Shown: piece by piece, positions 32,943 through 62,565 of the stretch
Position numbering within the stretch: the stretch's first letter is position 1
Layout of the letters: each line of letters begins with the position of its first letter
From: a virus
Taxonomy: Duplodnaviria > Heunggongvirae > Uroviricota > Caudoviricetes
Virus record (IMG/VR): IMGVR_UViG_3300009008_000004
Span: 18,004 to 82,003 of that record
Length of the DNA stretch: 64,000 nucleotides
Reading direction: 5' to 3' (one strand)
Notes under the pieces: generated by a model
Told to the model about the DNA's origin: nothing
The model's input: only the letters and a program-made list of their open reading frames with translations
Database searches by the model: none
Made by a program: the position numbers and the translations under genes

Positions 32943-33164
32943 CACCAACATCTGCGAAGGGGGCCTGGTTGGCAGGGCCGGGCCCCCTACAGCAGTTTAT
33001 CCCAATTAGATATTCGAGCAGAAGAGGGTAAAGGAGTAGGTGTTGCTGTAAGGATGACAGCAGGAATCTCCTTCAGTATACTACTGCTACTTCAACCAAT
33101 CCGCGTATGGCCGGGAAACTACTCCCGGCTGTGCCGCCTGGGTTGAACGGCGATGGAGGTAACG

Positions 33165-33299
33165 ATGGGAAAGGAAATGTCCACCTATAAGAAACTTATA
33201 CTCGCCGTGAAACTTGCGGCGACGTACTGGTTCTCGATGGGCAAGTTCCCGACCAAGGAGAAGGTGGCAAAGATGGTCCGGGAGAACAAGCGCGGGTAA
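33165..33299 (+). CDS. small hypothetical protein (44 aa)
   Basis: hand-translated ORF MGKEMSTYKKLILAVKLAATYWF...; below ORF-track cutoff. Confidence 0.25.
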   Translation: MGKEMSTYKKLILAVKLAATYWFSMGKFPTKEKVAKMVRENKRG

Positions 33300-34303: not shown

Positions 34304-34320
34304 ATATCTCGATTAGATAA
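34304..34320. promoter_or_regulatory. quasi-palindromic operator-like site ATATCTCGATTAGATAA
   Basis: reverse complement of the 11234-11250 site; just upstream of E2-like gene RBS. Confidence 0.45.
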
Positions 34321-34351: not shown

Positions 34352-35818
34352 GTGGCATACCAGTACAAAACCAACTACAAAGAGCTGGATGAAGCTCTCA
34401 CGACAGAGGCGGAAGTACTTGGGGCGTATATCATCCCCAGATTCGTTGACGTAAACGGGGCAGCCGACGTACACCACAAGCAAGCAGGGATCCCAAAAGC
34501 ACCTGCGGTATTCCTTGCTATCCAGCAGTATGACGTAGGAAATCCCATCTCAGAGGCGCGATTGCGTGTGCGGGGCGAAGACCTCACACTCACGAAGCCC
34601 ATACGCCCAACAAAGACGCCGGGGGTACCGATCGTTGTTAACAACGGCAAAAAACATGGTACCATAACCATCGGCTCGGTCTACGAGAACACGGTCTACC
34701 TCAACTTCAACCTGCCGAACTTTATCAACGCCAAGCGCTACACCAGAACTGCGCGGGGGAAAACGGGCAACACCGATGGCAGCTTCTTACCCAAACTATT
34801 CGCCCAGCACCTCCGTCCAGCATTCCAACTCGCGGCCAAGTTCGACGAAGGCTACAGCTACGCCGACGAAAAGAGAGTCCACGTCCAGAATGTGCTAAAG
34901 ACTCAAAAGACGGTCAAGAAAGAGCTTGAGCGCAAAATCTCCGTCCAAAGGAGGTCTATCGCCAACCACATCCAGGCAATCGAACAAGCAACCTCTAGGC
35001 TGGGAGAGATGCAACAGACGCTTGCCGGCCTCGAGGCCGACCAGGTGAAGCTTGCGAAAAAGGGGGAGACTCGCTTCCGCATCTTCAACAGCTTGTGGGG
35101 TAATGGCATTCACGATCTACGGATCGAGCCCACGCACATCATATTCCTCACAGCCCCGATCTTCTCCGAAGGGCTACCTTTCGGGCGCTTCTGGGTAACT
35201 ATCCCGCGGGGCGCAGACCGTCAGTACTCCAATATCACGATCAAGGCAGAAAACAACACCTACAACATAGGCGGATACGTACACCCACACATCCACGAGA
35301 ATGGGAGTATTTGCTGGGGCACAGCCGGCACGGTTATTGCGCAATTCCGCGGGCGGGGACAAGAGATCGAATGTATCCCCATTATCCTGGAGTACCTCCG
35401 GACCTACCATCATGACCACCAGTACCGCGCCATTGAGTACTGGGACGAGAAATTCGGTAAAAAGGGGGATAAAAAGCGAACTGACCGTGGTTCTCGCTGG
35501 CGTGAGTGTTACAGTAAGGTTACAGATCCGTACGAGTGTGCAGGATGCTTTGCCCCGGAATGCCCTTACCGGGACGGTGCCGAAGATCGTTGCTACAGGC
35601 AGCGGAACAAGAAGCAGGAGTACATTCGGTGTATGCAGTGTAAGGCCTGCAATAACTGGAAACACGCCAAAGCTGCCTGCCGGAAAAACCATCAGCAGGA
35701 CAGGAAGGATTGCGTGGGCTGCCCAGTAACATCATGTACCTACGCCGAGCCTGAGAAAGTGGCAAAAGCCCGCAAACCCAGACGGAAAACGGCTAAAGGG
35801 AGGACTAAGGCCGCATGA
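34352..35818 (+). CDS. E2 (UBC)-like ubiquitin-conjugating domain protein with N-terminal extension and Cys-rich C-terminus
   Basis: GTG start 7 nt after AAGGAGG; GGYVHPHIHENGSICWGTAG matches E2 HPN-x-x-x-x-G-x-I-C active-site signature; C-terminal 100 aa has 14 Cys (Zn-binding-like). Confidence 0.6.
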   Translation: MAYQYKTNYKELDEALTTEAEVLGAYIIPRFVDVNGAADVHHKQAGIPKAPAVFLAIQQYDVGNPISEARLRVRGEDLTLTKPIRPTKTPGVPIVVNNGKKHGTITIGSVYENTVYLNFNLPNFINAKRYTRTARGKTGNTDGSFLPKLFAQHLRPAFQLAAKFDEGYSYADEKRVHVQNVLKTQKTVKKELERKISVQRRSIANHIQAIEQATSRLGEMQQTLAGLEADQVKLAKKGETRFRIFNSLWGNGIHDLRIEPTHIIFLTAPIFSEGLPFGRFWVTIPRGADRQYSNITIKAENNTYNIGGYVHPHIHENGSICWGTAGTVIAQFRGRGQEIECIPIILEYLRTYHHDHQYRAIEYWDEKFGKKGDKKRTDRGSRWRECYSKVTDPYECAGCFAPECPYRDGAEDRCYRQRNKKQEYIRCMQCKACNNWKHAKAACRKNHQQDRKDCVGCPVTSCTYAEPEKVAKARKPRRKTAKGRTKAA

Positions 35819-36753
35819 AAATCAAAGTAGAACCAACAATTTTCCTTCTGCCAGAAGTCATCACGAAGATCGACATCTGGTGTAAGAAGGCCAAAGGGGA
35901 GGTCTCTGGCCTCGGCCTCATCGACATCGATGAAGATGGGGACATCTTTGTAACTGATGTCTACCTACTTGAGCAAAAGTCATCCAGTGGTAATACGGAC
36001 CTCGACCAGGAGGCTGTTGGTAACCTGATGACCGAACTCAGAAAGGAAGGCATCTCAATGTCCAAGCTCCGCTTCTGGTGGCATTCACATGGGAATGGTG
36101 GAGTATTTTGGTCGGGAACCGATGACAAGACCATCGATATTCTCGGCAAAGGCGGCTTTATGGTCTCCATGGTCACCAACAAGAAGCGGGAGAAGAAGTT
36201 CCGGATCGGGATGCAGAAACCGCTGAAACTGGACCTGGATGACGTTGGGTGGAGCCTCGCCTACTTCCCAGACGAAGAGTTTGAGAAGGAGTGCGAAAAG
36301 GAATTCGATGAGAAGGTCAAGGAGGTCACGACGATCACTACCTTCAAGGGTTCCGGAAACTACGGGCACAACCGCTCCGGCCGGGGCCGCTTCTACCATA
36401 ATGGGCGGTGGCACGACTCCTGGCCCGGTGGCAATGGGGGTTCCCGGACCGATTCTCCAGGAGGTGGGCTTCATCAGCCCGTCCCTTTTCAGGGAGAGGA
36501 CACAAGCCCCGGGACAAACAACCCACTCGAAATGCTCCCGTCGTGGGGAGAAATCCCCGGGACCGACGCAAGAAGTAGAGTCAGCGATCTCGTTGGTCAA
36601 GAGATTGAAGAGGTCGATACTCTCTGGCTTATTCTCAACGAAGCGGACTACACGGTAGCCGGGCTTGACCAACTCCGTAAGGCTAACAAGATCGAAACTG
36701 CGGAGCACAACCAAGCACGCGCCCAACTGAAGGAGCTCGGACTCGATGACTGA
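35815..36753 (+). CDS. JAB/MPN (JAMM) metallopeptidase
   Basis: E...WWHSHGNGGVFWSGTD = HxHx7Sx2D JAMM motif; ATGA coupling to E2-like gene. Confidence 0.8.
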   Translation: MKIKVEPTIFLLPEVITKIDIWCKKAKGEVSGLGLIDIDEDGDIFVTDVYLLEQKSSSGNTDLDQEAVGNLMTELRKEGISMSKLRFWWHSHGNGGVFWSGTDDKTIDILGKGGFMVSMVTNKKREKKFRIGMQKPLKLDLDDVGWSLAYFPDEEFEKECEKEFDEKVKEVTTITTFKGSGNYGHNRSGRGRFYHNGRWHDSWPGGNGGSRTDSPGGGLHQPVPFQGEDTSPGTNNPLEMLPSWGEIPGTDARSRVSDLVGQEIEEVDTLWLILNEADYTVAGLDQLRKANKIETAEHNQARAQLKELGLDD

Positions 36754-37411
36754 TATCGACAGGAATGCTATGTATCATCGGCAGCTCGATATCCTCGATC
36801 CGGAGAAGGCTGCCAAACTCAACGTCACTATTATCGGGGCCGGCGCTATCGGCTCCTTCACCGCACTCTCCCTGGCAAAGATCGGCGTAACCAACATCAC
36901 GGTCTACGACGATGACACGGTAGAGCTGCACAACATCCCGAACCAGTGGTACAGACTATCGGATGTCGGGAAGAAGAAGGTCATTGCCCTCCGCGAGATT
37001 ATCGAGCAGTTTACCGGGGTCAAGATTACCGCGATCCCGGAAAAGTTCGATAAGCAGAAGGCAAAAGGATTCGTCATCAGCGGAGTCGACTCCATGGATG
37101 CTCGCATTGGCATCTGGCAGAACCTCAAGATGCAGTTTCCACAGAGGTATCTGGATGCCCGCATGGGAGCGGAGGTGGGGGAGATACACATGGTGAACCC
37201 GGCCGACTTCGACAACGCCGAACAGTACGAGGAGAAGCACCTATTTCCCTCAACTGAGGCTGCTCCAGGAGCATGTACTGCCCGCAGCACAATGTACTGC
37301 GCCAGCGGGCTCGCTGCGATCATTGCGGCAAAGGTCAGCAACTTCATCAACCAGAGGCCCGACTCGGACCTGATCGTGGACTTCCGAAATATGAAGGTGT
37401 TGCCTGTTTGA
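36746..37411 (+). CDS. E1-like ThiF/MoeB-family adenylyltransferase
   Basis: VTIIGAGAIGS nucleotide-binding loop, YDDDTVELHNIPNQ E1 signature, 8-nt overlap with JAB gene. Confidence 0.8.
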   Translation: MTDIDRNAMYHRQLDILDPEKAAKLNVTIIGAGAIGSFTALSLAKIGVTNITVYDDDTVELHNIPNQWYRLSDVGKKKVIALREIIEQFTGVKITAIPEKFDKQKAKGFVISGVDSMDARIGIWQNLKMQFPQRYLDARMGAEVGEIHMVNPADFDNAEQYEEKHLFPSTEAAPGACTARSTMYCASGLAAIIAAKVSNFINQRPDSDLIVDFRNMKVLPV

Positions 37412-38954: not shown

Positions 38955-40295
38955 ATGAAACCGACCCGTCTTTGGTCGACATGGAGTGTCTCGAAATTGG
39001 TGCGGGTCCTGGACTGCCCACGATCCTTTGACCTTGTCTACATCAGACAGACGAAGGGTCCCGAAAGCCCGTACAAGGTTTTCGGCTCGGCGGTCCACAC
39101 CATGCTCGAGAGATTCTTCAAAGTGAACTACCAAACAGCTGAGTCCTTCGCCAAGGCGGGCGTCGGTTTCTGGATGGGGGTCGTAGACGGAAGTCACGGC
39201 CCCTCTTCTTTTAGTGCCGAGGTAAGCAAACCAGTCATTATTGACTTCAGTAACGTGAAGGCACCAATGATGTTCCTGGGCATGATGAAGAAGATACTGC
39301 GGATCTTCTACAACGATAATTTGGAGTATAGAGATGGTCCAAAACCTACGCCAGAGGTGGAAAAAAATTTCACGCTTGATCTGGAAGGCAAAAAGATTCG
39401 AGGTATCCTGGATCGACTCCAGCCCGACCATCCGGATCTTGCCTGGAACCGGCGAGACGGGGAGCTCGGCACACGGGTGGGCCACCATATCATCGACTAC
39501 AAGCCATACGTACTCGACCAGTTCGGGCTCCACCTTGACCTGCAACTCACCATGTACAATCTGTGGTACATCCAGCAGTACGGCAGAGACCCCCTCTCAC
39601 TTGGAATCTACAATTACAAAGAGCCCATCGACAGAGTTGTATGCACACCTCCCCGCACCCAGAAGGATTTCGCCGACCTCGCCCTCAAGTTTCAGGAGGC
39701 CTCAGAGTATGTCATTGGCGTGCTCACCGGCGACATGTCGAGGCCCTCCGCAATAACCGGGTTCCGGCATTTCATCCAAGATGACCTGATGACCGGGGTA
39801 ATGACGCCCAAGAAGGTAATGGGTGGTCCCGGGTGTAAGTTCTGTGAGTTCAAGGAGAATTGCCTGAAGATTCACAAAGGGGAGCTACCGACCACGCGGG
39901 AATACGTCAAGAAGAAGTACGAACTTCCAAGCTCCCCACTCCTCCCCTTCGCGGTAAAACATAAGGGAGCGGACCGACCGCGTACCCGCGCGAATCTGCG
40001 GAGAGTGCTTGCCCGCAGAAGGGTAGAGCCTCTGCCCACCAAACCGGAGGAGGTCTATCTCCGCCTACAACTGAAGGTGGATAGGACATCCGACAAAACC
40101 GACCCAACCAAGTATGGGCGCTGCCCCCACTGCGGGTTCGCCCTCCAGAAGAACGGGAAGTGTAACAACTGCCTCTCCTGGTATAGCAAGGATGGCAACT
40201 TCCTCCCCGAGAAATCATGGAAGTCCGTCTCCGACAGGATCAAAAGGAGGAAAGAAAAGGATGAGCAGGATGTGGGACCAGGTAATAGCGGATGA
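38955..40295 (+). CDS. PD-(D/E)xK nuclease, Cas4/RecB-like with Fe-S cysteines and C-terminal Zn ribbon
   Basis: N-terminal Cys (LDCPRSF), ...DRLQPD...IIDYKPY (D-x-K), GGPGCKFCEFKENC three-Cys cluster: Cas4-family arrangement; C-terminal CPHCG...CNNC. Confidence 0.6.
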   Translation: MKPTRLWSTWSVSKLVRVLDCPRSFDLVYIRQTKGPESPYKVFGSAVHTMLERFFKVNYQTAESFAKAGVGFWMGVVDGSHGPSSFSAEVSKPVIIDFSNVKAPMMFLGMMKKILRIFYNDNLEYRDGPKPTPEVEKNFTLDLEGKKIRGILDRLQPDHPDLAWNRRDGELGTRVGHHIIDYKPYVLDQFGLHLDLQLTMYNLWYIQQYGRDPLSLGIYNYKEPIDRVVCTPPRTQKDFADLALKFQEASEYVIGVLTGDMSRPSAITGFRHFIQDDLMTGVMTPKKVMGGPGCKFCEFKENCLKIHKGELPTTREYVKKKYELPSSPLLPFAVKHKGADRPRTRANLRRVLARRRVEPLPTKPEEVYLRLQLKVDRTSDKTDPTKYGRCPHCGFALQKNGKCNNCLSWYSKDGNFLPEKSWKSVSDRIKRRKEKDEQDVGPGNSG

Positions 40296-40926
40296 GTATA
40301 ACCTCCGCCAACAAGTAGCAGACCACACGAACAACACCCTTAACTCCGTCTGTAAGGAATGCGATTCCCCCGTCTGCTGTATGCAGATGTTTGAGGTTAC
40401 CCCGTGGGATGCGCTCCTTATCATCAGGACACATCCGCAAGCGGTAACTCGGCTTATACCCAAGCTGGAAGAGCAGGCTGAACTGGAGAAGAAGTACGCC
40501 GGCGAGATGGAGGAGTACATCCATAACGAACGGCATCCCTGCGCCTTTCTCACTGCCGACGGCAAATGCGAAATATACGCCATGCGCCCCATCATTTGCG
40601 CTATGATGCATATTCGCGAAGGAGAGAAGCGCTGCGGAGACATGGACGCCAAAGAGAAGCATGCAGTTGGGCTCCTCCCGGAGCTCACTGTACGATACCT
40701 CTCCACAACACACAAAGTGTGGGAAGGTGTAGACGGACAACAGGGAATGCGGCACTTCCTACTGGAGAACGGGATGGAGGATATACCTTTTGGATTTATC
40801 CCGGGCCTTGCCACAGCCATACTCGCTGTCGGCGAAGGCAAGAAACCTCCTATGTTCTCCGAGCGGGACATGCTCATGACCGAACTTCGTATGCGGCAAA
40901 AGGGGTACATGAAAGACGCCCCATGA
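40261..40926 (+). CDS. YkgJ-family Zn/Fe-chelating domain protein (second copy)
   Basis: CKECDSPVCC...CAFLTADGKCEIYAMRPIIC. Confidence 0.55.
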   Translation: MSRMWDQVIADEYNLRQQVADHTNNTLNSVCKECDSPVCCMQMFEVTPWDALLIIRTHPQAVTRLIPKLEEQAELEKKYAGEMEEYIHNERHPCAFLTADGKCEIYAMRPIICAMMHIREGEKRCGDMDAKEKHAVGLLPELTVRYLSTTHKVWEGVDGQQGMRHFLLENGMEDIPFGFIPGLATAILAVGEGKKPPMFSERDMLMTELRMRQKGYMKDAP

Positions 40927-42543: not shown

Positions 42544-42796
42544 TGTTTCACATACTGTCGATTTTTTTCTGCAGTAGTGATGGCGCCTCTCAGACGCCAT
42601 AACGAGCATTTTATTTTTCATTTCTCTGGTGTTTATAAGGTAGTGGTAATTAAAAACTGGTTTTTCCAGTTGAACTGCCTTAACCCGAACGAGAAAAATC
42701 CCATTAAGATATTGATCGGATCCAGCGGGTATGGCACAGTATTAGGCGTCCCATACTTGTGCGGGTCAACAACCACAATTGGAGGTACTCCAGGCT
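42544..42796. promoter_or_regulatory. AT-rich intergenic region with palindrome ATGGCG-N9-CGCCAT and T-runs (candidate partition site/origin/promoter)
   Basis: only sizeable AT-rich non-coding stretch; lies immediately upstream of ParB-like operon. Confidence 0.35.
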
Positions 42797-43090
42797 ATGC
42801 AACAGTTGCTTCCTCAAATCCGGCAGTTTGCCGCAGACAGGACAAGGGAGGCTGCGAGCGCTCTAAATGCTCTTGGCCGTGTCGTCAAAGTTCTCCAGGT
42901 GCTCGACTCCGAATACCAGGAGACGTACCAAACCCTTACGGTACGAGTCGATTCCGGGAAGTACGAGGGGCAAGTCCTGCCCGTCGTACAGATCCAGCTG
43001 GATGGTAAAGGGGTTACCATTTGGGCTACCCACAACGAAAACCCCAAGAAATTTCGCGTCACAGGCGAATTGGAGGTCACACAAGCATGA
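42797..43090 (+). CDS. hypothetical protein
   Basis: ATG 8 nt after GGAGG; 97 aa. Confidence 0.5.
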   Translation: MQQLLPQIRQFAADRTREAASALNALGRVVKVLQVLDSEYQETYQTLTVRVDSGKYEGQVLPVVQIQLDGKGVTIWATHNENPKKFRVTGELEVTQA

Positions 43091-44016
43091 GCAAGAAAAC
43101 CGTACACCTGGTCCTGGAGGATATCCGGTTGGATTCCGATGGTATGTCCAATTGCCGATCGGCTATGGAGGGTATCGAGGAGCTGGCACAGGACATCGTA
43201 GATGAGGGATGCCTGCTCAACCCCATTGGGGTATGGCAGCCCCCGGGAAAGGACTACTACGTCTTGAACTATGGCTACCGTAGGCTCCATGCGCTGAAGT
43301 GGCTCAAAGAACACCGACCCAAAGATTTCATCTCCCTTGACTTTGAGGAGGCTGGGAAGATCCCATGTGCCGCATACGGTGGGGATTTGAACGCCGCATT
43401 GATCAGGAACCTCTCTGAGAACCTGAAGCGGAAGCGGGTAAACCCGGCAGATCTGGTTACCCGGGTCGGGTACCTGCACGAAGTCCGGGGGATGACGGAG
43501 ACACTAATCGCGAAGACCATTGGGATTGCCCAGTCCCAAGTCTCAGGTATGCTGGGAGTCCACCTTGGGTGCTCCAAGGCAGTTATTGGTGCCCTCCGGC
43601 AGAAGCTCATCAACCTGTCCAACGCCAAGAAGTTCAGCAAGCTCCCACACGAGCAGCAGGATGAATTGCTGGAGAAGCTGCTTGAGCAGGACCCTGAGCA
43701 GGCAAAGAAGATCAAGAAGCTTTTGGCCAAGAAGACCGAGGCCTCCGTGCGTCCGGGTGTAAAGACTCTGAAGTCTACTCTTGGGCAGGTAGCTGCACGT
43801 AAGGAAGAGCGGGACAAGGAGTACCGCGATGGAGTCATTGCCGGCCTCAAGTTTGCATTGGGTATCATTGATAAGGTCGAATGGCTGTTTGCTCCGGCAC
43901 ACGCAGTTCCGGAAGATGCAGCTCCTCAGGCCCCGACGAGACTCGTTCGTGCGATGAAACCGAAGAAGAAGTTCGCTGGGAAAGCGCAAGAAAAGGAGAC
44001 CACCAAACCAAAGTGA
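43087..44016 (+). CDS. ParB/Sulfiredoxin-fold (ParB N-terminal domain) protein
   Basis: NPIGVWQ...YYVLNYGYRRLHALKWL = ParB GxxRxxA box; HTH-like middle; Lys-rich C-terminus; ATGA overlap. Confidence 0.6.
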   Translation: MSKKTVHLVLEDIRLDSDGMSNCRSAMEGIEELAQDIVDEGCLLNPIGVWQPPGKDYYVLNYGYRRLHALKWLKEHRPKDFISLDFEEAGKIPCAAYGGDLNAALIRNLSENLKRKRVNPADLVTRVGYLHEVRGMTETLIAKTIGIAQSQVSGMLGVHLGCSKAVIGALRQKLINLSNAKKFSKLPHEQQDELLEKLLEQDPEQAKKIKKLLAKKTEASVRPGVKTLKSTLGQVAARKEERDKEYRDGVIAGLKFALGIIDKVEWLFAPAHAVPEDAAPQAPTRLVRAMKPKKKFAGKAQEKETTKPK

Positions 44017-44031: not shown

Positions 44032-45639
44032 ATGTCCAAGCTAGAAACCCTGATCCGGGCTGCGTACCCGGTGATCTACGTTGAGACCCCCGAAGAGGAG
44101 CGGTTGTTCCATGAACTTTCACGGATCACCACCGAAACGGGGCTGGATTTATTCACTTGGGATATTTCCGCTGGCTTCCGCCAGTATAAGGACGACGAGT
44201 TCAAGGACATCGATCCTGAAGCGGTAGAGCCACGCGAGGCTATCCCGCAGTATTTCATCAACAAAGATGACGTGAATGGGATTCTGGTACTCCCCGACAT
44301 CCACCGCCTGTTCCATGATGCCGCCTGCCTACGCTTGCTGCGCAACGCGCTCCAGCTGCGGCACCAGGGTGGCATCAAGATCATCTTGATGTGCTCCCCT
44401 ATCATTGACCTTCCCCTGGAGCTCCGCCGGCAGGTAGCTACTGTCGACTTCCCCCTCCCCTCCCGGGAGGAAATCAAGGAATTCCTCGAGGAGCAGCGCA
44501 ACGACGTCCCCAAGACCCTCTTCCCTGTGAAGAAGGAGATGGCGGAGGTGGTTGATAGCTGCCGTGGGCTGACGATGATGGAGATTGAGAATGTTCTGGC
44601 CAACTGCCTGGTCGAGGATTCTCCTCTGAAACCCAGCCGGGTTATCGGGGAGAAGAAAGAGATTCTCCGTGGGGCCAAGTCCCTGGAGTACATCGAATCT
44701 CCCTTGGAACTGAACAAGGATGTCGGGGGTCTCGAGAACGTGATTGCCTGGCTCGAGCTTCGCAAGCGTGCCTTCTCTGAGGATGCTGTGAAGTTCGGGA
44801 TTCCTGCGCCCAAAGGCTTGCTCCTGGTGGGTTTGCCTGGAACAGGGAAAAGCTTGGTCGCCAAAGCAGTTGGTGGTTCTTGGAAGTTCCCTCTGATCCG
44901 CTTCAATATGGGCGCTGCCTTCTCGAAGTGGCAGGGGGAATCCGAGGCGGAGATCCGGAATGCCTGGAACACCGCAGAGGCCTGCGCACCATGCCTCTTG
45001 GTAGTGGATGAAATTGATAAAGCGACCGGCGGTCTGGGCGGCGACTCAGACAATGGGACCGGGAACCGAATTCTTGGAGACCTGCTGACGAAGATGCAGG
45101 AGAACACCAAGGGCGTGGTCGTTATTGCTACCTGTAATGACGTACAGGCGATGCACCCAGCATTGCTTCGTAAAGGCCGCTTTGACGAGATTATCTTCGT
45201 GGACTTGCCCGGCCCCAAGGCCATCGAGCAGATCCTCGATATCCACTTGACGGCAAAGAAGCAGCCAACGTTGGATTCGTTCACCAAGAAAGAACGGAAA
45301 AGCATCGTCGAGCACATGCAGGGCATGACCGGCGCGGAGATTGAGCAGGCAGTTGTAGATGCCATGTACCTGGCATTTGCTGCTGAGCGGGCCCTCCTTC
45401 CTGAGGACCTCGTAGCTGCCGCTACTAACACCCGACCGTATTGCGTCCTGAAAGAGGAGGAAGTCAAATGGATGCGGAAGTGGGCAGAAAACAGGGCGGT
45501 GCCAGCATCCGCCGAAGTCTTGGACTTGACGAAAGCCCTGGACTTTCGCAAGCGCTTGGGCCAAGAACTCCCAGCGGATTCACCAATGTCTACGGTAAAG
45601 AAGCTGCGGCTAAAACGTCCCTCGCGCTCTGGCTCGTAG
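44032..45639 (+). CDS. AAA+ ATPase (classical AAA clade) with N-terminal domain
   Basis: LLLVGLPGTGKSLVAKAV Walker A, CLLVVDEIDKA Walker B, ATCNDVQAMHPALLRKGRFDEII sensor/Arg-finger region. Confidence 0.8.
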   Translation: MSKLETLIRAAYPVIYVETPEEERLFHELSRITTETGLDLFTWDISAGFRQYKDDEFKDIDPEAVEPREAIPQYFINKDDVNGILVLPDIHRLFHDAACLRLLRNALQLRHQGGIKIILMCSPIIDLPLELRRQVATVDFPLPSREEIKEFLEEQRNDVPKTLFPVKKEMAEVVDSCRGLTMMEIENVLANCLVEDSPLKPSRVIGEKKEILRGAKSLEYIESPLELNKDVGGLENVIAWLELRKRAFSEDAVKFGIPAPKGLLLVGLPGTGKSLVAKAVGGSWKFPLIRFNMGAAFSKWQGESEAEIRNAWNTAEACAPCLLVVDEIDKATGGLGGDSDNGTGNRILGDLLTKMQENTKGVVVIATCNDVQAMHPALLRKGRFDEIIFVDLPGPKAIEQILDIHLTAKKQPTLDSFTKKERKSIVEHMQGMTGAEIEQAVVDAMYLAFAAERALLPEDLVAAATNTRPYCVLKEEEVKWMRKWAENRAVPASAEVLDLTKALDFRKRLGQELPADSPMSTVKKLRLKRPSRSGS

Positions 45640-46355
45640 GTATCGCTCAGAATACGCGGCCCACTTACTGGCTGCCTTTTGAGCCCTTACCCGAAAGAGA
45701 CTACATCTCCTCTCTGCAGGTGGACCTGTCAAAGCTCCTCCTCGCAGAAGACGTACGTACCATGGATGACGTGGGGTACCTCCTTGCTGGACTTCCCAGG
45801 GAGGCGCTCCTCGTGATCGATTCCATGGATACTATGCCGATCGGGGCTGGACGACGACTAACTACTGAAAAGCAAGGGGTGAGTTCCGCACTACAGGAAC
45901 TCGCCGCCTTTGCTCCCTTGCTACAATCAAGGCAGATCAGCGTTATCCTGATCTCCCAAATACGGTATAGGCCGGCAACTGGACTACAATCCAGCGCAGG
46001 TGCAATGGAGGGTGCACTTACTGCTGCACTAAACCTCCGAGTACTCAGCCGAGAAACCAAATACGGGGAGCGTACGTGGACCCAGATAGCGGTAGAGAAC
46101 ACACGGCATACGTTGAACCCCCCGGGAAGGGAATGCATACTCTACATGCACCCGTCTCTCGGAATATCGCCCGAACGAGAACTGGTAGAGGAGTTGAAGA
46201 AACGGTACGGTACTAAGTGGAGGTCGGAGCTCACCGGGCGTACAGGTGTTCGACTTCCCAATGGTCTTGTTGCTGCGGCTCAAGCGATCCGCGACAACCC
46301 GGAAACCGCAGAGAAGCTATGGAGGTTACTGTGGCAAAGAAGAAAATCGAAGTAA
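45468..46355 (+). CDS. RecA-like recombinase homolog with degenerate P-loop
   Basis: SLGLDESPG...ALG, YGKEAAAKTS (cf. RecA YGPESSGKTT), LLVIDSMDTM (cf. VVDSVAAL), ILISQIR (cf. IFINQIR), AIRDNPETAEKLWRLL (cf. [20 protein letters not shown]); N-terminus overlaps AAA gene. Confidence 0.5.
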   Translation: MDAEVGRKQGGASIRRSLGLDESPGLSQALGPRTPSGFTNVYGKEAAAKTSLALWLVGIAQNTRPTYWLPFEPLPERDYISSLQVDLSKLLLAEDVRTMDDVGYLLAGLPREALLVIDSMDTMPIGAGRRLTTEKQGVSSALQELAAFAPLLQSRQISVILISQIRYRPATGLQSSAGAMEGALTAALNLRVLSRETKYGERTWTQIAVENTRHTLNPPGRECILYMHPSLGISPERELVEELKKRYGTKWRSELTGRTGVRLPNGLVAAAQAIRDNPETAEKLWRLLWQRRKSK

Positions 46356-46543
46356 CAATCAACCCTGACGGGACTGTCGAGGGGGAGGCCATGGGCCATG
46401 AAGGGGATGGCTGCATGGATGCCCTGCGGGGGATTACCTCCGGAATGAAACGATTGCGGACAAAGCGAAAGCCCGAGTTCTTCAGAACCTGCAAGGTCAG
46501 CGCCCCCGCACTGCGGTATGGTGGTAAGGAGACCAAGCATTAA
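46319..46543 (+). CDS. small hypothetical protein
   Basis: ATG with GGAGG-containing context; basic. Confidence 0.3.
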   Translation: MEVTVAKKKIEVTINPDGTVEGEAMGHEGDGCMDALRGITSGMKRLRTKRKPEFFRTCKVSAPALRYGGKETKH

Positions 46544-46554: not shown

Positions 46555-47163
46555 ATGCGCCACAACGCACCGATGCTCCATATAGAGGGCATTGTGTACC
46601 CAACGCAGGCGAACGGCCCAGGAAAGCGCATCCTTGTTGCTGTCCGTGGGTGTTCTCTGCAATGCCCCGGGTGTGTAAACAAACATCTATGGGATCGTAC
46701 CCTCGGCGGAAGATACGTAGACCCAGCGAAGTTCGTGGATGAGTTGCTGAAGACAACGGGACTCTCTCGGGAGGATGCCACTAATGTCGGGCTTACAATC
46801 TCCGGGGCAGAGCCACTAGACCAAGCAGCCGCTCTCTTCATCCTACTTGTCCAAGCAGCCCTGACCTTCAGGGATATCATCGTCTTCTCCGGTTACACCA
46901 TCGAGGAGATCGAGGAAGACGCTCTGAAGAGCTCTTGCCTGGCATGGCTGGACGCAATTATCACAAATAGATATTTGCGGGAGCAGCACGCTACACAGGG
47001 CCTCAAAGGGTCTGCCAATCAGGAAATCATCGTCAACCCCTACCGGAACAAGCTCACTCTGCAAGAGTTGGAGGATTTCGAGCATGTAGTTGAGATCCAC
47101 CCAATCGGGGTGATAACCGGCTTCCCATCAAAGGAAGAGGAGGAAGCATGTCAGCATTCATAG
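46555..47163 (+). CDS. radical-SAM activating-enzyme-like protein (NrdG/QueE-like CxxxCxxC)
   Basis: YPTQANGPGKRILVAVRGCSLQCPGCVN: CxxxCxxC cluster in NrdG/QueE-type context; RBS AGGAGG. Confidence 0.55.
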   Translation: MRHNAPMLHIEGIVYPTQANGPGKRILVAVRGCSLQCPGCVNKHLWDRTLGGRYVDPAKFVDELLKTTGLSREDATNVGLTISGAEPLDQAAALFILLVQAALTFRDIIVFSGYTIEEIEEDALKSSCLAWLDAIITNRYLREQHATQGLKGSANQEIIVNPYRNKLTLQELEDFEHVVEIHPIGVITGFPSKEEEEACQHS

Positions 47164-47573
47164 TTTGCGATCCTGTGGAGCTCACCGAGGATCAGATACT
47201 CCAAACCCTCAAGCTCCTGGGCTATGAGACCATCGAACAGGGAAAAGATCTCCACCTGTATGGCTACCAGGGAGACAAGCGGAAAGAGACCGCGGATATT
47301 GTTGTGCGTCGAAAGTACATCGGCCACTCCAGCAATGACCTTGGCTTCAAGAAGGGTGCGGACGGGAAATACAAGATGATCGTTTCCGAGTACGATCAGC
47401 GTGCCCTCGTAACCAAGCACAACGGTAAGCGAGGAATGCGTTTCCAGCAACTCTTCACGCAAGCAGCCTCTACCTCGAAGGTAATCGAGAATGCTCGCCA
47501 GAAGAAACTCCGGGTCGAAATGCCACAGGAAGGTCTACGGTGGGGAGAACCGATTAAGCTCTCAATTGGCTAA
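47148..47573 (+). CDS. hypothetical protein
   Basis: 141-aa ORF; last + strand gene before strand switch. Confidence 0.45.
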   Translation: MSAFIVCDPVELTEDQILQTLKLLGYETIEQGKDLHLYGYQGDKRKETADIVVRRKYIGHSSNDLGFKKGADGKYKMIVSEYDQRALVTKHNGKRGMRFQQLFTQAASTSKVIENARQKKLRVEMPQEGLRWGEPIKLSIG

Positions 47574-48364
47574 CCGTCGTCGACAATGCTGGCATTGATA
47601 GATGCGCCAAACTCAGGCTGCTGATTCGGAGCTGCCGTCACCAGGTTCACAGCCGGGGTGTTGATCGGAACCACGTTCCCCGGAATGATGGTGATAGTCT
47701 CCTGGATAATCAGGCCCTGGGAGTCCACAGCCATAGTATGTGTCGGAATCATGCACTGCTCGAGGTAGTACGCCCCGACAGTGTTGTCTTCCGTGTCCCG
47801 CATGAGCAACATAATGCCCGTCGGGACGCGGAAGATATCCGACGCCAAGTTCAACCACAGGTTATCATACCCGGGCTGAGTATGGATTGTGGGCAACTCT
47901 CCCGTGAGGGCTGCGCCGTAATCAGAAGCCGTACCCGTGGACGAGAAGGGCTGCAGATAGTCGGGGACAGAGCCCTCGAACATATCGTTGATTGCGGACA
48001 CATCCTGAGGTGAGTCGCTTCCAGTGTAGTACCAGGCGTACATAACACGCAGCAGCGAGGGCCCGTGGTACACAATACGACCCAGGGTTACCTGGCGTAC
48101 TGTACGGCCGCGGAAGAAGTAAGACTTCTCACTCCCAATCTCGAAGAGCTGTTGGACCGCCGAGTTCTGTGCGATAGCAAAGTTCTGAGCCAGACCTATA
48201 GGGTAAACATTGCTCGTCGCCGCAGTACCAAGTGCCTGCAAGAAAGGCGGGCCCACGCACAACAACGTATTTTTACCTGTCAGGTAGTTATTGTCCCGGA
48301 GGCCCCCTTGAACATGTTGGCCCCAGGGGTTCCAGCCGTCAGTTCCGAAAATCTTTTCAGTCAT
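47570..48364 (-). CDS. virion structural protein (hypothetical)
   Basis: 264-aa ORF in minus-strand structural block; stop overlaps + gene stop. Confidence 0.5.
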   Translation of the reverse strand: MTEKIFGTDGWNPWGQHVQGGLRDNNYLTGKNTLLCVGPPFLQALGTAATSNVYPIGLAQNFAIAQNSAVQQLFEIGSEKSYFFRGRTVRQVTLGRIVYHGPSLLRVMYAWYYTGSDSPQDVSAINDMFEGSVPDYLQPFSSTGTASDYGAALTGELPTIHTQPGYDNLWLNLASDIFRVPTGIMLLMRDTEDNTVGAYYLEQCMIPTHTMAVDSQGLIIQETITIIPGNVVPINTPAVNLVTAAPNQQPEFGASINASIVDDG

Positions 48365-48394
48365 TAGTTGGACCTCCGTTGAGGGTCACTACCT

Positions 48395-49012
48395 TTACGA
48401 TAGATCGACCGTGTTCTCAGTAAACTGGACCACAGCAGAGGTGAGAATCACTGCGGAAGTTCCGCCACCTGTGTCGTCCACGAAAAAACGGAAAAGGAGC
48501 GTTTCGCCCGCACCCATGTATGCCGGGGTGCCCGCATCGACCAGTGTTGCTTTGTGCAGCTCGGGAGCTGCGGTGTCATCACCGCGCTTCGCCGGGGTGT
48601 TATGGTCTGCATCGTAGTCAGCATTGTCGTTCCCAAAGAGAACTGCTGCTGTCCGTGCCGCACCATCAGCACCCTGGGTCACCTTCCAGAGCTCGCAACG
48701 AAGATCGACAACCACATCCGCAGTACCTACGGTGTAGTTGACCGTCATACCTGTAGGCATAATCCCCTTTCCAGCAGTTGTTCTGTTGGGTACAGGAACA
48801 GAAACCCACCAGGATTCGCCGCTGGCAGCTGCTGCCCGCGTAACGGACTGAAGACCGCCGGACGTAACAGAAGGCGTAAAGCCTCCACCGTCCTTGAATC
48901 CCATCAAAATATCGACAGCGATTTCGCCGTCAGTCTCCGCTGTGCCGGCGGCGGCAAGCTGTGTATCAAGCGGAGTAGTTGTATTGGCATCAAGTGTAAA
49001 TGCTTTTACCAT
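48395..49012 (-). CDS. virion structural protein (hypothetical, Thr/Ala/Gly-rich)
   Basis: 205-aa ORF. Confidence 0.5.
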   Translation of the reverse strand: MVKAFTLDANTTTPLDTQLAAAGTAETDGEIAVDILMGFKDGGGFTPSVTSGGLQSVTRAAAASGESWWVSVPVPNRTTAGKGIMPTGMTVNYTVGTADVVVDLRCELWKVTQGADGAARTAAVLFGNDNADYDADHNTPAKRGDDTAAPELHKATLVDAGTPAYMGAGETLLFRFFVDDTGGGTSAVILTSAVVQFTENTVDLS

Positions 49013-49038
49013 TGTAATCCTCCCTGCCTACTCCGAGG

Positions 49039-49506
49039 CTATTCAGAAATCACGTAGTCGATGAAAGCTACGATACGGCCAGTAACTCCCAGATCGGCTG
49101 CGGCGACAGTCAGATCCAAGGTCTGCGCTGCCGTGGTTTTAATCATCACTGCTTCCAAGCTAATGCCGCCCGAGAAGGGAGCCGCATTGAAGGCAGTCGC
49201 CAGCTTGACGTCATTCGCGGCTTCGATCCCGAGGGCTACCGTAGCAGCACCACCTGAGGACAGCAGCGTAGTAACATCAAGACGAACATTGGTGACAATC
49301 GCGTTGTCGGGAATGGTAAGGCTGGTACCGGCCGCAGTCCTAAAGGGATGCGGACTACCAGCGATATCCAGCGTATCCTCAGAAGCATCGATGTATGCCT
49401 TGAGGGTCCCGGTCATCTGATCCCCATAGGTGGTCCCATCAGTGGCCACAACACCGTCGCCCTGAGTGAGGTCCAACCCCGTCGAATCAATAGTGAATCC
49501 TTTCAT
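49039..49506 (-). CDS. small structural protein, paralog A
   Basis: near-identical block DTLDIAGSPHPFRTAAGTSLTIPDNAIVTNVRLDV shared with next gene. Confidence 0.55.
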   Translation of the reverse strand: MKGFTIDSTGLDLTQGDGVVATDGTTYGDQMTGTLKAYIDASEDTLDIAGSPHPFRTAAGTSLTIPDNAIVTNVRLDVTTLLSSGGAATVALGIEAANDVKLATAFNAAPFSGGISLEAVMIKTTAAQTLDLTVAAADLGVTGRIVAFIDYVISE

Positions 49507-49531
49507 GGTATTCCTCCCGCCCTACTCAGGC

Positions 49532-50254
49532 TTATTCGGTTACAAAGTAGTCAACCAGCGCCACAATCTTACCCGCGGTCAGGTCCTCTGCGGCAACCGT
49601 AAGGTCCAGTGTCTGAGCACCAGTGGTCTTCACAATAAGAGTCTCCAGGCTCTGCCCGACAGCACCACCAGCATTGAAGGGGGCCCCGGTAATAATGGTA
49701 ACGCCCTTGACGTCAGTAGTAGTCTCAACACCCAGAGAAACTGTAGCCGCGTTAGTAGCAGACGCCAGCACAGTTACCACATCCAGACGCACGTTAGTGA
49801 TAATGGCGTTGTCTGGGATAGTGAGGCTCACACCAGCCGCAGTTCTGAAGGGGTGAGGGCTACCGGCAATATCGAGCGTATCCTCGGTAGCATCAATGTA
49901 GGCATGCGCAGTGTAGCAAGCCTGCGTTGCTCCGTAGGTAGCTCCCTGCGCGAAACTGGTAACACCGGCGTTGGTGATGGCCAGCGGGCCAGTCACTGCG
50001 ACAGAAGTTGCGGTGGTACCGTTACCGACCACGATCTGTGCATTTCCACTGATGTCCAACGCAGTGGGGATATTGGTAGCATTACCGATAAGCATGTTTC
50101 CTTCGGTCAGACCACCAACAATTCCGCCCAGTGCAGTTTCCAGCAGTACAAACGCTGCATCGACATCGCCACGTAGGTCGCGCGCGACCTCATCCCCTCT
50201 TTCCAAGTGGGGGATCGAAGCGACCTGGCTTCCGAAATAAGTACTAGATCCCAT
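49532..50254 (-). CDS. structural protein, paralog B (N-terminal extension + paralogous C-terminal domain)
   Basis: C-terminal 150 aa about 65% identical to 49039-49506 product. Confidence 0.55.
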   Translation of the reverse strand: MGSSTYFGSQVASIPHLERGDEVARDLRGDVDAAFVLLETALGGIVGGLTEGNMLIGNATNIPTALDISGNAQIVVGNGTTATSVAVTGPLAITNAGVTSFAQGATYGATQACYTAHAYIDATEDTLDIAGSPHPFRTAAGVSLTIPDNAIITNVRLDVVTVLASATNAATVSLGVETTTDVKGVTIITGAPFNAGGAVGQSLETLIVKTTGAQTLDLTVAAEDLTAGKIVALVDYFVTE

Positions 50255-50298
50255 GGTTCATTCCTCCCTATAAGGTCCGTCTTTCAAACGAATTCATT

Positions 50299-50315
50299 TT
50301 ATCTCAACGAGATAA
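50299..50315. promoter_or_regulatory. perfect palindrome TTATCTC-AAC-GAGATAA
   Basis: in 66-bp gap upstream (minus-strand sense) of gene 49532-50254; same family as sites at 3306, 11234, 34304. Confidence 0.5.
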
Positions 50316-50320
50316 TTCTC

Positions 50321-53300
50321 CTACACTACCAGCGTCACGTTGATCTGGTTGGCCGGGTAGTACGGCGTCACCGAGATATCCACATACAGCGTATCCGGCT
50401 GCTGTGAGTCGATGTAGATGTTGGTGATCGTGATCTTCGATACGATTGTCCCAGTCATCCCACCGATTACAGAGCTAACCAAAATGCTCACGTAGTCAAG
50501 GAAATTCCTTGTCAGATTGAACTTCCCAGCCAACCCCTGCATAGAGACCCGGAGCCGCTTCGTGATGTAGTCCAGCACATGGGTGATGGACGCTTCCCTG
50601 GTTTGCAGGGAGGTGACATCGGTAGTCAGCTGATGCCGAGTTTCAACTGCGGAGTAGCTGTCCTGCTGGATCAACCACCAAACACCGCCGCCGGCCGCGG
50701 TATCCATGTCGGAAGCTGACAGGAGATCCCAGGAGCCAGAGACACTCTCAATACCCGCAAGAGTAAGTCCGGTAAAGGACTGCTGCGGGGCAGTCGAAGC
50801 GCACAACCCAGCAAGGGCTGCACAAGTGTACATCCCATGGATAGAGGTCGAGGACCCACTTTCCAGGTAGGTAGCAGACGAGGGCTGCACGTACCGAACA
50901 CGGCGGTATCCGTACGCCGTCGCCTTTGAAGCAAGAGCAGCTGCGAGCTGCGCACGCCCCGTCGAGGTTGTGGTATCGATGGAGGCCTGCCTGACATAGA
51001 GAGTAACTGTCTCGCCATCAGCATCCCAAGCCGGGCTGTCTCCACCGGCCTCAACCATAGTAGTTGCGTAGAAGTTATCATCGTTACCGGTGGTCCCCGG
51101 GCCGGAGCCTGCGGAGAAACCGGTGATGCGGCACTTCAACACGTTGCCGGCCTTAATCTCAGACACGGAGTACTTGAACGGATCGTCCGTACGAGTGATG
51201 TAAAGGCCGTTTTCAATGGTAACTGCTCCCGAAATAGGGACAGTCGCACCATTTGCGTCGGTCTTGCCAGCCAGCACAGCAGCAATATTGAAACCGGTGG
51301 CCGCATCGATTGTGACCTCAAAAGAGGTACCAGCAATCTTGTTGAACGGAGCCGTGGTATTCGGTGCCGAGCCACAAGTAGTCGGGGTGCGCTCTGTAGG
51401 TGAATCTTCACAAACGAAGCACACACGCTCGCTCTTTCCGGTAGTCGGGTCTGCCATCGCAGTTACGTGGGCATCAAGCAGCTCATGGACTGCAGGGCTA
51501 TCCGACATCGGAGCAATGGCGTAAACATCGGCAGACTGCAGGAAGTCGAAGGCCTTGGCGTAGGCGCTCGTGGTTCCATAAGCCATCAAAGTCGAGGTTT
51601 CTTCGACACCAAATGCCTTCACCTGGATATTCGGTGCGTTCAGCATCGCAAGGTACACACCGAGGGCCAGCGGGTTCGAAGAATTGACGGGACCAATTGC
51701 AGTCTCCATCTCAGCGTAGGTCGAGTAAATCTGCACAGCCGGGCTTGCACCCGCGGCAGTTATGTCGGTACGCAGGGCAGTGTATCCAGCAGCCAGCTGC
51801 GCAGTGCTGCTCTGGTACTCAACACCACCACCATCTCGGTTAAGCCCGCCCTTCAGGTAGATCAGTTGGTTGGTAGTATCAAACCAGACCTCAGACCGCG
51901 GCTTATCAGAAGTAGTGTTACCCTGGTACTGCCCATCGGTAGCCGCACCAGTAATACCTTGAGAGGAGATGTACCAGGTGCCAAGAGCAGTACCTACTGT
52001 GGCGTTTTGCTCTGTCAGGTCGAGGTATGCGTTGGTCAGTGTCTGAGCGCCAACTATGCCGTCGTTCCAGGTATAGTTAGCGAAGGCAGAGATTGTTCCA
52101 ACGTAACTTCCGGCGTTATACAACTTATCACCGACCTGCACGCGCAGGGGGTCCCCGCGGAAGATCTTACCGGTGAAGTCTGTTGTAGACGTGGTGTACG
52201 GCCCACGGAACAGCATGTTCGCGGCATCTCCACCGAACTCAATTCCCGCATCGTAACCGGCGTAGTTACCGCACATGGTTGCGTCCAAGGTACACTTCAA
52301 AACTTTTTGGCCCGTAGTGAGCAAACGGTAGTCTACCGTATAGGGCCCAGCACCAAGAGAAGCAGCCAAGGTAATCGTCCCAGTCGCTGGGTTGATCCCA
52401 GATACCGTTGAGATAGTTCCCCCCAACGTACCGGATCCTCGGGGAACTGTGTCCCCGGTAATCTGCGCAAGAATAGTCGCCCCACCAACCCGAGCAGCCT
52501 CAACATACGTTAGAGCCGCGACATCGGCCGAAGCGTCTACGAGGGAAGTTGTAGTTAGCGTAGCTGATGTACTGCCATACATCTCTGTAGCATATGGAAT
52601 ATCGGCAGCAGCTTCGGCTGTGAACGGGGAACCGCCGGTCACCAACGCATTAAGGGCTGCAAGCAATCCCGCCTCATTCGTCATGTCAGCCGCATCAAGC
52701 GTATCCGACGTAACCGGTCCCCCATTCACCCTAACAGTAATTGTCTTATTGATCAGGGGTGAGGACGCGCCGTAGAATGACGCCGCGGTGAGCGGGCATT
52801 CCCCAAGTACCGTGGGGTAGGTTTGAGTTGCGCTTGTCGCGGCGTAGTTATATGGATCCGCCCCAAAGTTTAGGCCGTAGATCTTGCCGCTCAAGTCATC
52901 AGAAAGTAAAGCAGATGTAGAACCGTCCAAGTAGCTAATGTTAGTGCTCCCGACAGTCGTGTTAGGTCCAAGAAACGGCTCAATGGTCGCATTCGCCTTC
53001 ATGGCAGTATCAAGGGCGGCCGCCTTGCAGATGTCGGGAACAGCTACTGTCCAAGCCGCGCCACCTGCCCCGCAAACCGCTGGGCAGTATTCAATTTCAA
53101 TTTCTACCGGGAAGGCCGCCCCAGCTACGGGATTCTTTACATTCGGGAGAATATAAGACCCGGGCGATACCGTAAATCCTACGTCAGCCGCGACGCTCGA
53201 GATAATCGTAACGGCCCCACCGGTAAGGGTAGTCAGAGTAAAGACGGGACCAGCGCCTGTAAGGATATACCAACCATTATAGGCTTCGCCCGGGCCCGAC

Positions 53301-54523: not shown

Positions 54524-54526
54524 GGT

Positions 54527-56602: not shown

Positions 56603-56623
56603 ATGGATTACGTTCCTTCTCCA

Positions 56624-61064: not shown

Positions 61065-61077
61065 TGTTCTCCTCCTA

Positions 61078-61725: not shown

Positions 61726-61736
61726 AGCTCTCCTCC

Positions 61737-62553: not shown

Positions 62554-62565
62554 ATCCGCTCCTCC

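Follow-up and report, generated by a model that had tools for sequence, protein, structure and literature searches.

An orphan ParB-family protein in a conserved operon of a large, uncultured marine phage

The 64,000-nucleotide stretch of IMG/VR record IMGVR_UViG_3300009008_000004 analysed here (the window) represents roughly one third of a 182.7-kb marine phage contig and carries, at 42544-44016, an AT-rich intergenic gap, a small gene and a gene for a 309-residue ParB-like protein. By sequence and by fold the 309-residue open reading frame (ORF) encodes a genuine ParB-family protein of the ParB/Noc/KorB type, and this protein is an orphan, with no ParA partner encoded in the window or near the corresponding loci of its relatives. 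We think it rather probable that this protein, switched by nucleoside triphosphate (NTP), binds the phage genome and regulates or organises it, and that a promoter in the AT-rich junction drives its expression. The first-pass annotation had offered the gap as a partition site, a replication origin or a strong promoter, and the protein as a sign of a plasmid-like prophage state or as a nuclease or regulator of the ParB family; the regulator option is consistent with what we find of a ParB-family protein that bears a helix-turn-helix (HTH) domain. The source element is a large, uncultured, lytic-looking tailed phage of about 180 kb from the marine environment, so described because its structural module distantly resembles that of Salmonella phage Arash and of Vibrio phages.

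The gene and the recognisable parts of its product are the following.

43087-44016, plus strand: ParB-family protein, 309 residues plus stop (PF17762, phrog_4715, PDB profile, AlphaFold2 (AF2) model, Foldseek)
43273-43293, plus strand: Box II / P-motif G63-Y-R65-R66-L-H-A69, the GxxRxxA box (aligned to Spo0J)
43417-43431, plus strand: Box III / P-motif E111-N-L-K-R115 (aligned to Spo0J and Noc)
43477-43692, plus strand: ParB-type HTH DNA-binding domain, residues 131-202 (Pfam HTH_ParB)
43894-44013, plus strand: Lys/Arg-rich disordered C-terminal tail, residues ~270-309 (composition; predicted local distance difference test (pLDDT) score 48-57)

The ORF contains LNYGYRRLHALKWL and has a GGAGG ribosome-binding site 10 nt 5' of its ATG. 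Its product matches the PHROGs family phrog_4715, 'ParB-like partition protein', at 3.6e-21, and a profile built from four ParB-like sequences and compared with the PDB finds ParB (4umk, 1.3e-12) and Spo0J (1vz0, 1.2e-11), then Noc, the ParB proteins of Myxococcus and Caulobacter, PadC and KorB. The match of residues 131-202 to HTH_ParB (PF17762) lies just over threshold (E 2.4e-5; 24.9 bits, cutoff 22.6), and this domain is found in 44 of the 56 sequences of the family alignment that was used for conservation and for AF2 modelling. All three boxes of the family can be aligned with solved proteins: IEELAQDIVDEGCLLNPIGVW stands opposite LxELAxSIxxxGLLQPxxV of ParB/Spo0J (Box I), GYRRLHA opposite GERRxRA (Box II; GERRLRA and GERRYRA in Spo0J of H. 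pylori and T. thermophilus), and ENLKRKRVNP opposite ENxQRxDLNP (Box III; ENIQR and ENLQR in Spo0J and Noc). G63 and R66 are invariant, R65 and A69 are conserved in at least 90% of the 56 members, and E111, N112 and R115 are unchanged in all four close homologues. The predicted nucleotide pocket (R24, G63, R65, R66 and N112) is conserved at 90% or more across the same 56 relatives, and these residues correspond to the phosphate-contacting positions that canonical ParB has in its P-motifs (Box II and Box III). The 309-residue protein with a GxxRxxA box and a Lys-rich tail that the first-pass annotation described is present as such, the tail having 10 Lys or Arg against 4 Asp or Glu in the last 40 residues; the homologues likewise end in a basic tail.

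The AF2 model has a mean pLDDT of 88.7, with values above 90 over residues 1-200, and shows helices at 138-145 and 149-161 and further ones in the HTH region, a helical C-terminal third (residues 203-268) and then the disordered basic tail. Its best PDB matches in Foldseek are two-domain nucleotide-bound clamps, namely Noc, ParB with CDP or CTPgammaS, KorB and Spo0J (E ~1e-8, probability 1.0), and BFVD holds many phage ParB-HTH proteins with the same fold. The protein has the NTP-binding fold of the ParB-CTPases, with CTP as its probable ligand. A rival reading is a ParB-fold nuclease or a sulfiredoxin/SerK-like enzyme without DNA-clamp function, close to the case (a ParB-fold nuclease or sulfiredoxin without DNA-partition features) which the first-pass annotation held against its own proposal. 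Such an enzyme is hinted at by a weak SerK match (NF053625, E 0.0057) and by Foldseek matches to sulfiredoxin (Srx), SerK and SbnI structures (E 0.02-0.07 only, over ~100 residues), but these matches span the shared N-domain only and are five to six orders weaker than those to two-domain ParB, Noc and KorB. The protein has a ParB HTH and carries no fused HNH or other nuclease domain, and the two-domain matches dominate; the DNA-binding architecture stands, and we regard a bare enzyme as extremely improbable.

Part of the nucleotide-binding domain is missing from the Joint Genome Institute (JGI) gene call P0001 (283 residues), which starts 26 codons late. The stretch absent from it, 43087-43164, holds the homologue-invariant residues I13, G19, N22 and R24 and hence a P-motif arginine; because these N-terminal residues are conserved in the homologues, we favour the 309-residue start.

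The orphan status of the protein rests on several searches. No ParA-type deviant Walker A motif (KGGxGK) occurs in the six frames of the window, where P-loops are confined to two AAA ATPases of the classical kind, and no ParA-type Pfam family is found within 10 kb of the ParB-like gene in the nine related phage contigs that we compared; the earlier remark that no ParA partner was seen nearby is borne out. The larger ORFs of the window's plus-strand module, when scanned against Pfam and NCBIfam, gave no ParA, integrase or repressor, and neither the window proteins scanned nor the same 10-kb neighbourhoods of the nine relatives include lysogeny or partition genes. The ParA-binding motif (L/F/I)G(K/R)G(L/F/I), as defined in PMC12704722, is not found by a regular expression over the 309 residues. 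Canonical parS, TGTTNCACGTGNAACA with up to three mismatches, has 3 matches in the window against 2.06 expected, none of them close to parB, so that the check for parS-like repeats proposed with the first annotation finds canonical parS only at chance; the half-site TGTTTCAC opens the gap, yet its frequency in the window is that of chance as well.

These searches bear directly on classical partition, that is on a low-copy plasmid prophage whose centromere would lie within the gap or close to it and whose ParA would be encoded outside the window. An N-domain, an HTH and a basic C-terminus do form the layout of a partition ParB, the window is about one third of the contig, and P1 ParB likewise has no consensus ParA-binding motif (PMC12704722). 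On the other hand ParA is missing from the window and from the relatives' neighbourhoods, the protein has no LG(K/R)GL motif, no parS-like array lies in or near the gap, integrase, repressor and other lysogeny genes are absent from the scanned proteins, and the match to the partition family TIGR00180 stays under threshold (33 bits against a cutoff of 58.45). We therefore judge classical partition to be decidedly improbable, and neither the partition site nor the plasmid-like prophage state is supported by these results, although a centromere of a non-canonical type may lie near the operon. For annotation this means that the 309-residue protein should not carry a partition-protein label.

What, then, is its place in the family? 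The protein lies outside the partition ParB, Noc and PRTRC families, since the defining features of these were tested and not found. With the partition proteins (ParB/Spo0J, TIGR00180; P1 ParB) it shares a homologous N-domain and HTH and a basic C-terminal region, but it differs from them in its score below the TIGR00180 cutoff and in having no ParA, no ParA-binding motif, no parS and no PF23552 domain. Like Noc and VirB it is an orphan with a two-domain architecture that retains Boxes I-III, and Noc gives both its best NCBIfam match (TIGR04285, E 4e-9) and its top Foldseek match (7ol9/7nfu); however, 36.2 bits against a TIGR04285 cutoff of 315 make it no Noc orthologue, and unlike Noc and VirB it is phage-encoded, has an unrelated C-terminal region and shows no evident N-terminal amphipathic membrane helix. 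KorB of RK2 has the same ParB-CTPase N-domain and HTH (Foldseek 8qa9/8qa8, E ~1e-7), and its Pfam family PF08535 matches 10 of the 56 members. There is also a likeness between the scattered palindromic operators of KorB and a 15-bp palindrome found at promoters of the phage (see below), and between the KorA-KorB pair and the gene of about 100 codons that precedes the ParB gene in the phage. Different from the phage protein, however, KorB has a ParA partner (IncC) and a ParA-binding motif, neither of which is found for the phage protein in the window, and the 97-residue product of the small preceding gene neither looks like an HTH protein nor resembles KorA. What the relatives have in common with PRTRC is that a ThiF/E1-like gene stays 3-6 kb from the ParB homologue in all contigs, but PRTRC proteins A-F were not detected among the neighbours and the PRTRC ParB has 555 residues; membership was rejected with scores under the cutoffs for both TIGR03734 (30.3 against 278.6 bits) and TIGR03736 (54.6 against 144.75 bits). 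Membership in a defence system was likewise dropped, PADLOC giving no family beyond generic AAA and E1 matches. By analogy, the protein would work most like KorB, Noc and VirB.

It fits best among the orphan ParB-CTPase proteins, which are widespread on mobile elements and phages (PMC12704722) and with which it shares a length of 250-350 residues, a phage origin, an HTH and the lack of ParA (Vibrio phage VpV262 and uncultured Caudovirales; BFVD Foldseek 1e-10 to 1e-7); it departs from many of these orphans in Box III, which is retained here. Within this known class it represents a rare new subfamily, confined to one clade of uncultured phages. A search of 5.8 billion clustered proteins gave four close homologues and no more; a profile search gave ~18 clusters above 260 bits (members at least 263), the next being the best Noc at 123 bits, and HMMER against 1.84 billion representatives gave 17 matches below 1e-30 before these blended into generic ParB proteins. 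All members with long contigs are on phage-like metagenome contigs of 150-190 kb. In 50,697 deposited phage genomes tblastn returned nothing below E 0.1, a pattern search of IMG/VR and GTDB genomes gave no matches to the protein, and a metagenome scan re-found only the lineage of one relative, L001. As phage-borne orphan ParB-CTPases are common and almost entirely uncharacterised (PMC12704722), the protein offers a clean full-length example of them.

The distance between this subfamily and the chromosomal proteins also matters for the idea that the protein targets the host, binding parS-like sites on host DNA and disturbing segregation, nucleoid organisation or the loading of SMC. Its best sequence relatives of solved structure are indeed chromosomal Spo0J/ParB and Noc, and with no canonical parS above chance in the window a phage-borne target of this kind is not evident. 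But the gap of at least 263 to 123 bits sets the subfamily far from chromosomal ParB and Noc, and the recognition helix varies between phage lineages, which fits lineage-specific sites on the phages better. We consider this idea quite improbable.

The gap in front of the operon contains the following elements.

42544-42796, no strand: AT-rich intergenic region of 253 bp, GC 0.43, with plus-strand operons on either side
42570-42608, plus strand: hairpin that holds ATGGCG-N9-CGCCAT, then UUUUAUUUUU at 42609-42618; candidate weak intrinsic terminator (minimum free energy (MFE) fold)
42655-42671, no strand: small hairpin AACTGG-TTTTT-CCAGTT (aligned to a conserved element in relatives)
42697-42711, plus strand: AATCCCATTAAGATA, a degenerate copy with three mismatches of the palindrome TATCTCAnTGAGATA (motif scan)
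42727-42735, plus strand: GGGTATGGC, -10-like, resembling the GGGTATAAG that follows strong copies of the palindrome (motif comparison)

Between the end of the upstream plus-strand gene, at 42543, and the start codon that comes next, at 42797, lies the lowest 200-bp GC content of the window (0.375, against a mean of 0.539 with a standard deviation of 0.035, hence about 4.6 standard deviations below), and the T-runs (T7 at 42562-42568 and TTTTATTTTT at 42609-42618) and the ATGGCG-N9-CGCCAT palindrome (42580-42600) are there as first described. The claim that this is the only extended AT-rich non-coding region, of about 250 bp, holds for its length and its minimum of GC, and gaps of similar length at 4983-5239, 23885-24210 and 32943-33213 are not AT-rich, but shorter promoter-bearing gaps are equally so (GC 0.38-0.44). 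Similarly, AT-rich DNA does lie before the operon, but not directly before the ParB-like gene, the intervening gene for the 97-residue protein having been passed over. The three closest lineages have a gap GC of 0.36-0.39 against 0.55-0.57 for the whole loci, whereas in the distant GC-rich relatives L012 (9885-10000), L014 (9856-10000) and L015 (9864-10000) the gap at the ParB position is not AT-rich. The gaps of these last three share a conserved element CAAG(T/A)CCTGGCTGC about 45 nt 5' of the start codon.

The gap might also be a replication origin or a DNA-unwinding element near which the ParB-like protein acts: it is the window's AT-richest stretch, it has several A/T tracts, and its DNA-metabolism surroundings include a PD-(D/E)XK nuclease and a metallophosphatase. 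The gap, however, holds no iterons, tandem repeats or direct-repeat families beyond chance pairs of 8-10 nt, and DnaA boxes occur at chance frequency, with a single one-mismatch match in the gap and no cluster. The cumulative GC skew rises to ~47.5 kb and then falls; it turns where plus-strand genes give way to minus-strand ones (47573) and passes 42.5 kb without an inflection. Both checks that the first-pass annotation had called for here, on iterons and on skew, thus went against an origin, as do the equally AT-rich promoter-bearing gaps elsewhere and the relatives L012, L014 and L015 without an AT-rich gap. An origin at this site is in our view very improbable, and the gap should be named neither origin nor centromere in annotation. 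Rfam gave no match in the gap (E-value mode) or in the whole window, the window contains no tRNAs, and a comparison of the leader across five lineages for conserved RNA structure predicted zero pairs.

The most economical reading of the gap is that of an inter-operon junction, in which a putative weak terminator is followed by a candidate promoter of the phage's own class. The evidence for such a class comes from the rest of the window. The 15-mer TATCTCAnTGAGATA (consensus TATCTCATTGAGATA) has 17 matches with up to three mismatches against 1.9 expected (~9-fold), and none of 100 shuffles reaches this count; its simplified form TATCT-N5-AGATA has 13 matches with at most one mismatch against 1.1 expected, again a count that no shuffle reaches. 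The palindrome is almost always intergenic in the window, and so are its better copies (3306-3320, 11235-11249, 15027-15041, 32998-33012, 34305-34319 and 50300-50314) and often stand directly after a GC hairpin and T-run; 12-15 nt past them comes GGGTATAAG (GGGTATnnn), and a gene starts 25-70 nt further on. At 3315 and 11244 the arrangement is GAGATATT-N11/12-GGGTATAAG. Together, TATCTCAnTGAGATA and GGGTATAAG probably represent a class of promoters or operators in which the right arm of the palindrome supplies a -35-like TTGAGA. Phages that are distantly related by their structural genes, such as Arash, encode multisubunit RNA polymerases with short AT-rich early promoter motifs (PMC7598289); no RNA polymerase genes were recognised in the window, the visible third of the genome.

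In the gap itself, the right arm of AATCCCATTAAGATA gives a -35-like TTAAGA, and the arrangement reads AAGATATT-N13-GGGTATGGC, about 60 nt (62) before the ATG at 42797; in L001, a scan of the corresponding place gives TTGAGA-17-TATGCT. We infer that GGGTATGGC and the palindrome copy would form the promoter of the operon that begins with the 97-residue protein and ParB. The strong promoter of the first-pass annotation is therefore retained in part: a promoter fits the evidence, but the copy in the gap is a weak one. The hairpin at 42570-42608 has internal loops in its stem and an MFE of -11.9 kcal/mol (z = -1.16 against shuffles). Elsewhere in the phage a hairpin with T-run (3286-3303 and 5802-5819) likewise comes directly before the promoter motif, so that the terminator-then-motif arrangement is seen again at 3286-3320 and 5802-5837. 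The ATGGCG palindrome is lineage-specific, and a plausible if weak case can be made for reading it as part of a weak terminator hairpin of the upstream operon. The small hairpin at 42655-42671 aligns with an A-run/T-run/CAG element that is kept in L001, L004 and L007.

Downstream of the gap, the ParB-like gene is set in the following row of genes.

42797-43090, plus strand: conserved 97-residue protein, first gene of the operon (GGAGG at 42781-42785; homologues in five lineages)
44032-45639, plus strand: Ycf46-like AAA ATPase (phrog_8638, 1e-109)
45720-46355, plus strand: 211-residue protein
46319-46543, plus strand: DUF2997 protein
46555-47163, plus strand: NrdG-like radical-SAM activase
47148-47573, plus strand: DUF1257-like (Ycf35-like) protein

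Judging from its sequence context, the ORF for the 97-residue protein between the gap and parB is a real gene. Its GGAGG lies 11 nt 5' of the ATG, its stop overlaps the parB start (ATGA) in a manner expected to couple the translation of the two, and homologues with 28-54% identity stand directly 5' of the ParB-like gene in five lineages; among the nine lineages a small ORF at this place is confined to the subclade of the window. The protein has no family in Pfam, PHROG, NCBIfam or PADLOC, and its AF2 model (pLDDT 69), a long helix with a five-strand barrel, has no significant PDB match, the WYL/KOW-like ones being non-significant. An ORF in another frame that overlaps the gap (42577-43008) was dropped in favour of this conserved gene.

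In the core layout of the clade the ParB-like gene has a fixed place, always at the start of an operon: it, or the small gene before it, comes first after an intergenic gap in all relatives. Nine lineages, with ParB identities as low as ~25%, share the order ParB, Ycf46-like AAA, a protein of ~200-280 residues, DUF2997, radical SAM and DUF1257, and in related lineages the operon is followed by a convergent structural module that opens with a protein of ~1400 residues. The cassette lies at 10905-13568 in L001, 10920-13352 in L007 and 10941-13557 in L015; the AAA gene is interrupted in these relatives, by an intein-like insert in L001 (887 residues), by an HNH gene in L007 and by a different insert in L015. 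In distant lineages the ~200-280-residue protein after the AAA ATPase bears a RecA_N domain. For the 211-residue protein of the window a RecA-like nature, suggested by eye from GKEAAAKTS, was rejected, there being no similarity to RecA_N of L012 (E = 45) and no family match. DUF2997 and DUF1257 also form a conserved gene pair in cyanobacteria (PMC4284462).

Such conserved company raises the question whether the ParB-like protein serves the cassette itself, as an NTPase accessory subunit of the AAA/DUF2997/radical-SAM/DUF1257 proteins that targets or regulates the modification or processing of phage DNA. Besides the gene order kept in nine lineages, the AAA gene begins only 15 nt past the parB stop, and there is precedent in the ParB-like regulators DndB and DpdB and in the ParB-dependent phage T-dioxygenases (PMC13229309; for DndB, PMC12704722). 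But neither the cassette nor the window scans contain a TGT/DpdA, a dioxygenase, a methyltransferase or DndA-E, the radical-SAM protein resembles activases of the NrdG/PflA type rather than base modifiers, and PADLOC again finds nothing beyond generic AAA/E1. Moreover, since the whole region is syntenic in these phages, adjacency is weak evidence. An accessory role is unlikely, we believe.

If the orphan ParB-family protein is instead a DNA-binding regulator, where would it bind? Candidate DNA sites are obvious in the genomes of the clade. TATTAC-N3-GTAATA is found in L007 (237 and 13835), L012 (3101, 7616, 9244 and 14339), L015 (12604 and 15555) and L017 (5220 and 15414), and L016 has four identical copies of TATTTTGcCAAAATA, at 4715, 4925, 12855 and 17091. 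Such lineage-specific palindromes, of 15 bp and built like TATCTCAnTGAGATA, are improbable by chance, most of all in DNA of 64% GC. Two simple ways of linking them to the protein were given up: covariation between recognition helix and palindrome is not clean, as lineages with the TATTAC core differ (SQPQVSNLIAV against SQENVSVYYKL), and proximity of the palindromes to parB fails on distances that are inconsistent across lineages, several copies being intragenic. That the ParB-like protein, perhaps with the 97-residue protein as partner, loads at the promoter palindromes of the clade (TATCTCAnTGAGATA, TATTAC-N3-GTAATA and TATTTTGcCAAAATA) as an NTP-switched sliding clamp that controls transcription genome-wide is a conjecture that we hold to be distinctly unlikely as it stands. 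If true, it would mean that a large lytic phage has long-range regulation of the KorB/KorA kind, with autoregulation through the weak site in the AT-rich leader of the operon.

The mechanism that we favour is the following. The weak hairpin and its U-tract would end the upstream operon, and a promoter made of the palindrome-derived -35-like element and GGGTATnnn would drive the operon for the 97-residue, ParB, AAA, DUF2997, radical-SAM and DUF1257 proteins. By analogy with ParB-family clamps, the ParB-like protein would recognise specific DNA sites through its HTH, and nucleotide binding in the N-domain would lead to self-engagement and so to holding or sliding on DNA. DNA-bound protein may then control transcription or DNA access on the phage genome, with no role in ParA-driven segregation. 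We infer nucleotide binding, clamp behaviour and a regulatory role for the protein, promoter and terminator activity for the gap, and the identity of the binding sites.

A number of observations weigh against this mechanism. As to the protein, PF02195 (ParB_N) does not reach E 0.1, although it matches 29 of the 56 family members; the canonical C-terminal dimerisation domain PF23552 has no Pfam match in the protein or its family, so that the clamp topology is only predicted; and a preference for ATP, GTP or CTP is not predictable from sequence or from AlphaFold3 (PMC12704722). As to the gap, the hairpin is no better in energy than shuffled sequences, it was not called by a terminator consensus scan, and neither its sequence nor the ATGGCG palindrome within it is conserved in the three related lineages that were aligned. 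A sigma-70 scan finds no plus-strand promoter there; the palindrome copy is weak, with three mismatches and about one fifth of such matches possibly due to chance, and its -35 and -10 elements are 20 nt apart. Finally, the synteny with the AAA and radical-SAM genes could mean that the ParB-like protein serves that machinery and not regulation.

Several further genes of the window deserve mention. Upstream of the operon on the plus strand, a 615-residue AAA ATPase (17534-19381) is similar near end-to-end to the Mpa/ARC proteasome ATPase (TIGR03689, 315 bits over 14-486 of 512, cutoff 505); such a gene is unusual for a phage and is possibly a hint at the host lineage. Two overlapping plus-strand genes encode a weakly Prok-JAB-like protein (35815-36753, E 0.0077) and a ThiF/E1-like protein (36746-37411, PF00899, 4.5e-21) and may be a ubiquitin-like conjugation/deconjugation pair; every related contig has a ThiF/E1-like gene 3-6 kb 5' of its ParB-like gene. 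Other products of the plus-strand module are:

8585-9259, plus strand: YspA/SLOG (YAcAr) protein
29408-29887, plus strand: HAD_SAK_2 protein (RNA-repair-type HAD)
30273-31004, plus strand: calcineurin-like phosphoesterase
31080-32942, plus strand: 620-residue SPFH/Band-7 protein
38955-40295, plus strand: PD-(D/E)XK nuclease
40255-40926, plus strand: CxxCxxCC zinc/iron-chelating protein

The structural module occupies the minus strand from 47570 to 63483. Its 408-residue ORF at 59919-61145 (minus strand) shares 27% identity with the major capsid protein of Arash and of Vibrio phages D69, D148 and D181, and four more minus-strand ORFs match Arash structural proteins, including the 1400-residue protein at 50321-54523. 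Adjacent paralogous structural genes on this strand form two pairs. In the first (49039-49506 and 49532-50254) a 143-nt direct repeat with 76% identity links 49256-49398 with 49761-49903, and in the second (57843-58226 and 58226-58606) the two proteins of 126 and 127 residues encoded at 57843-58606 are clearly alike.

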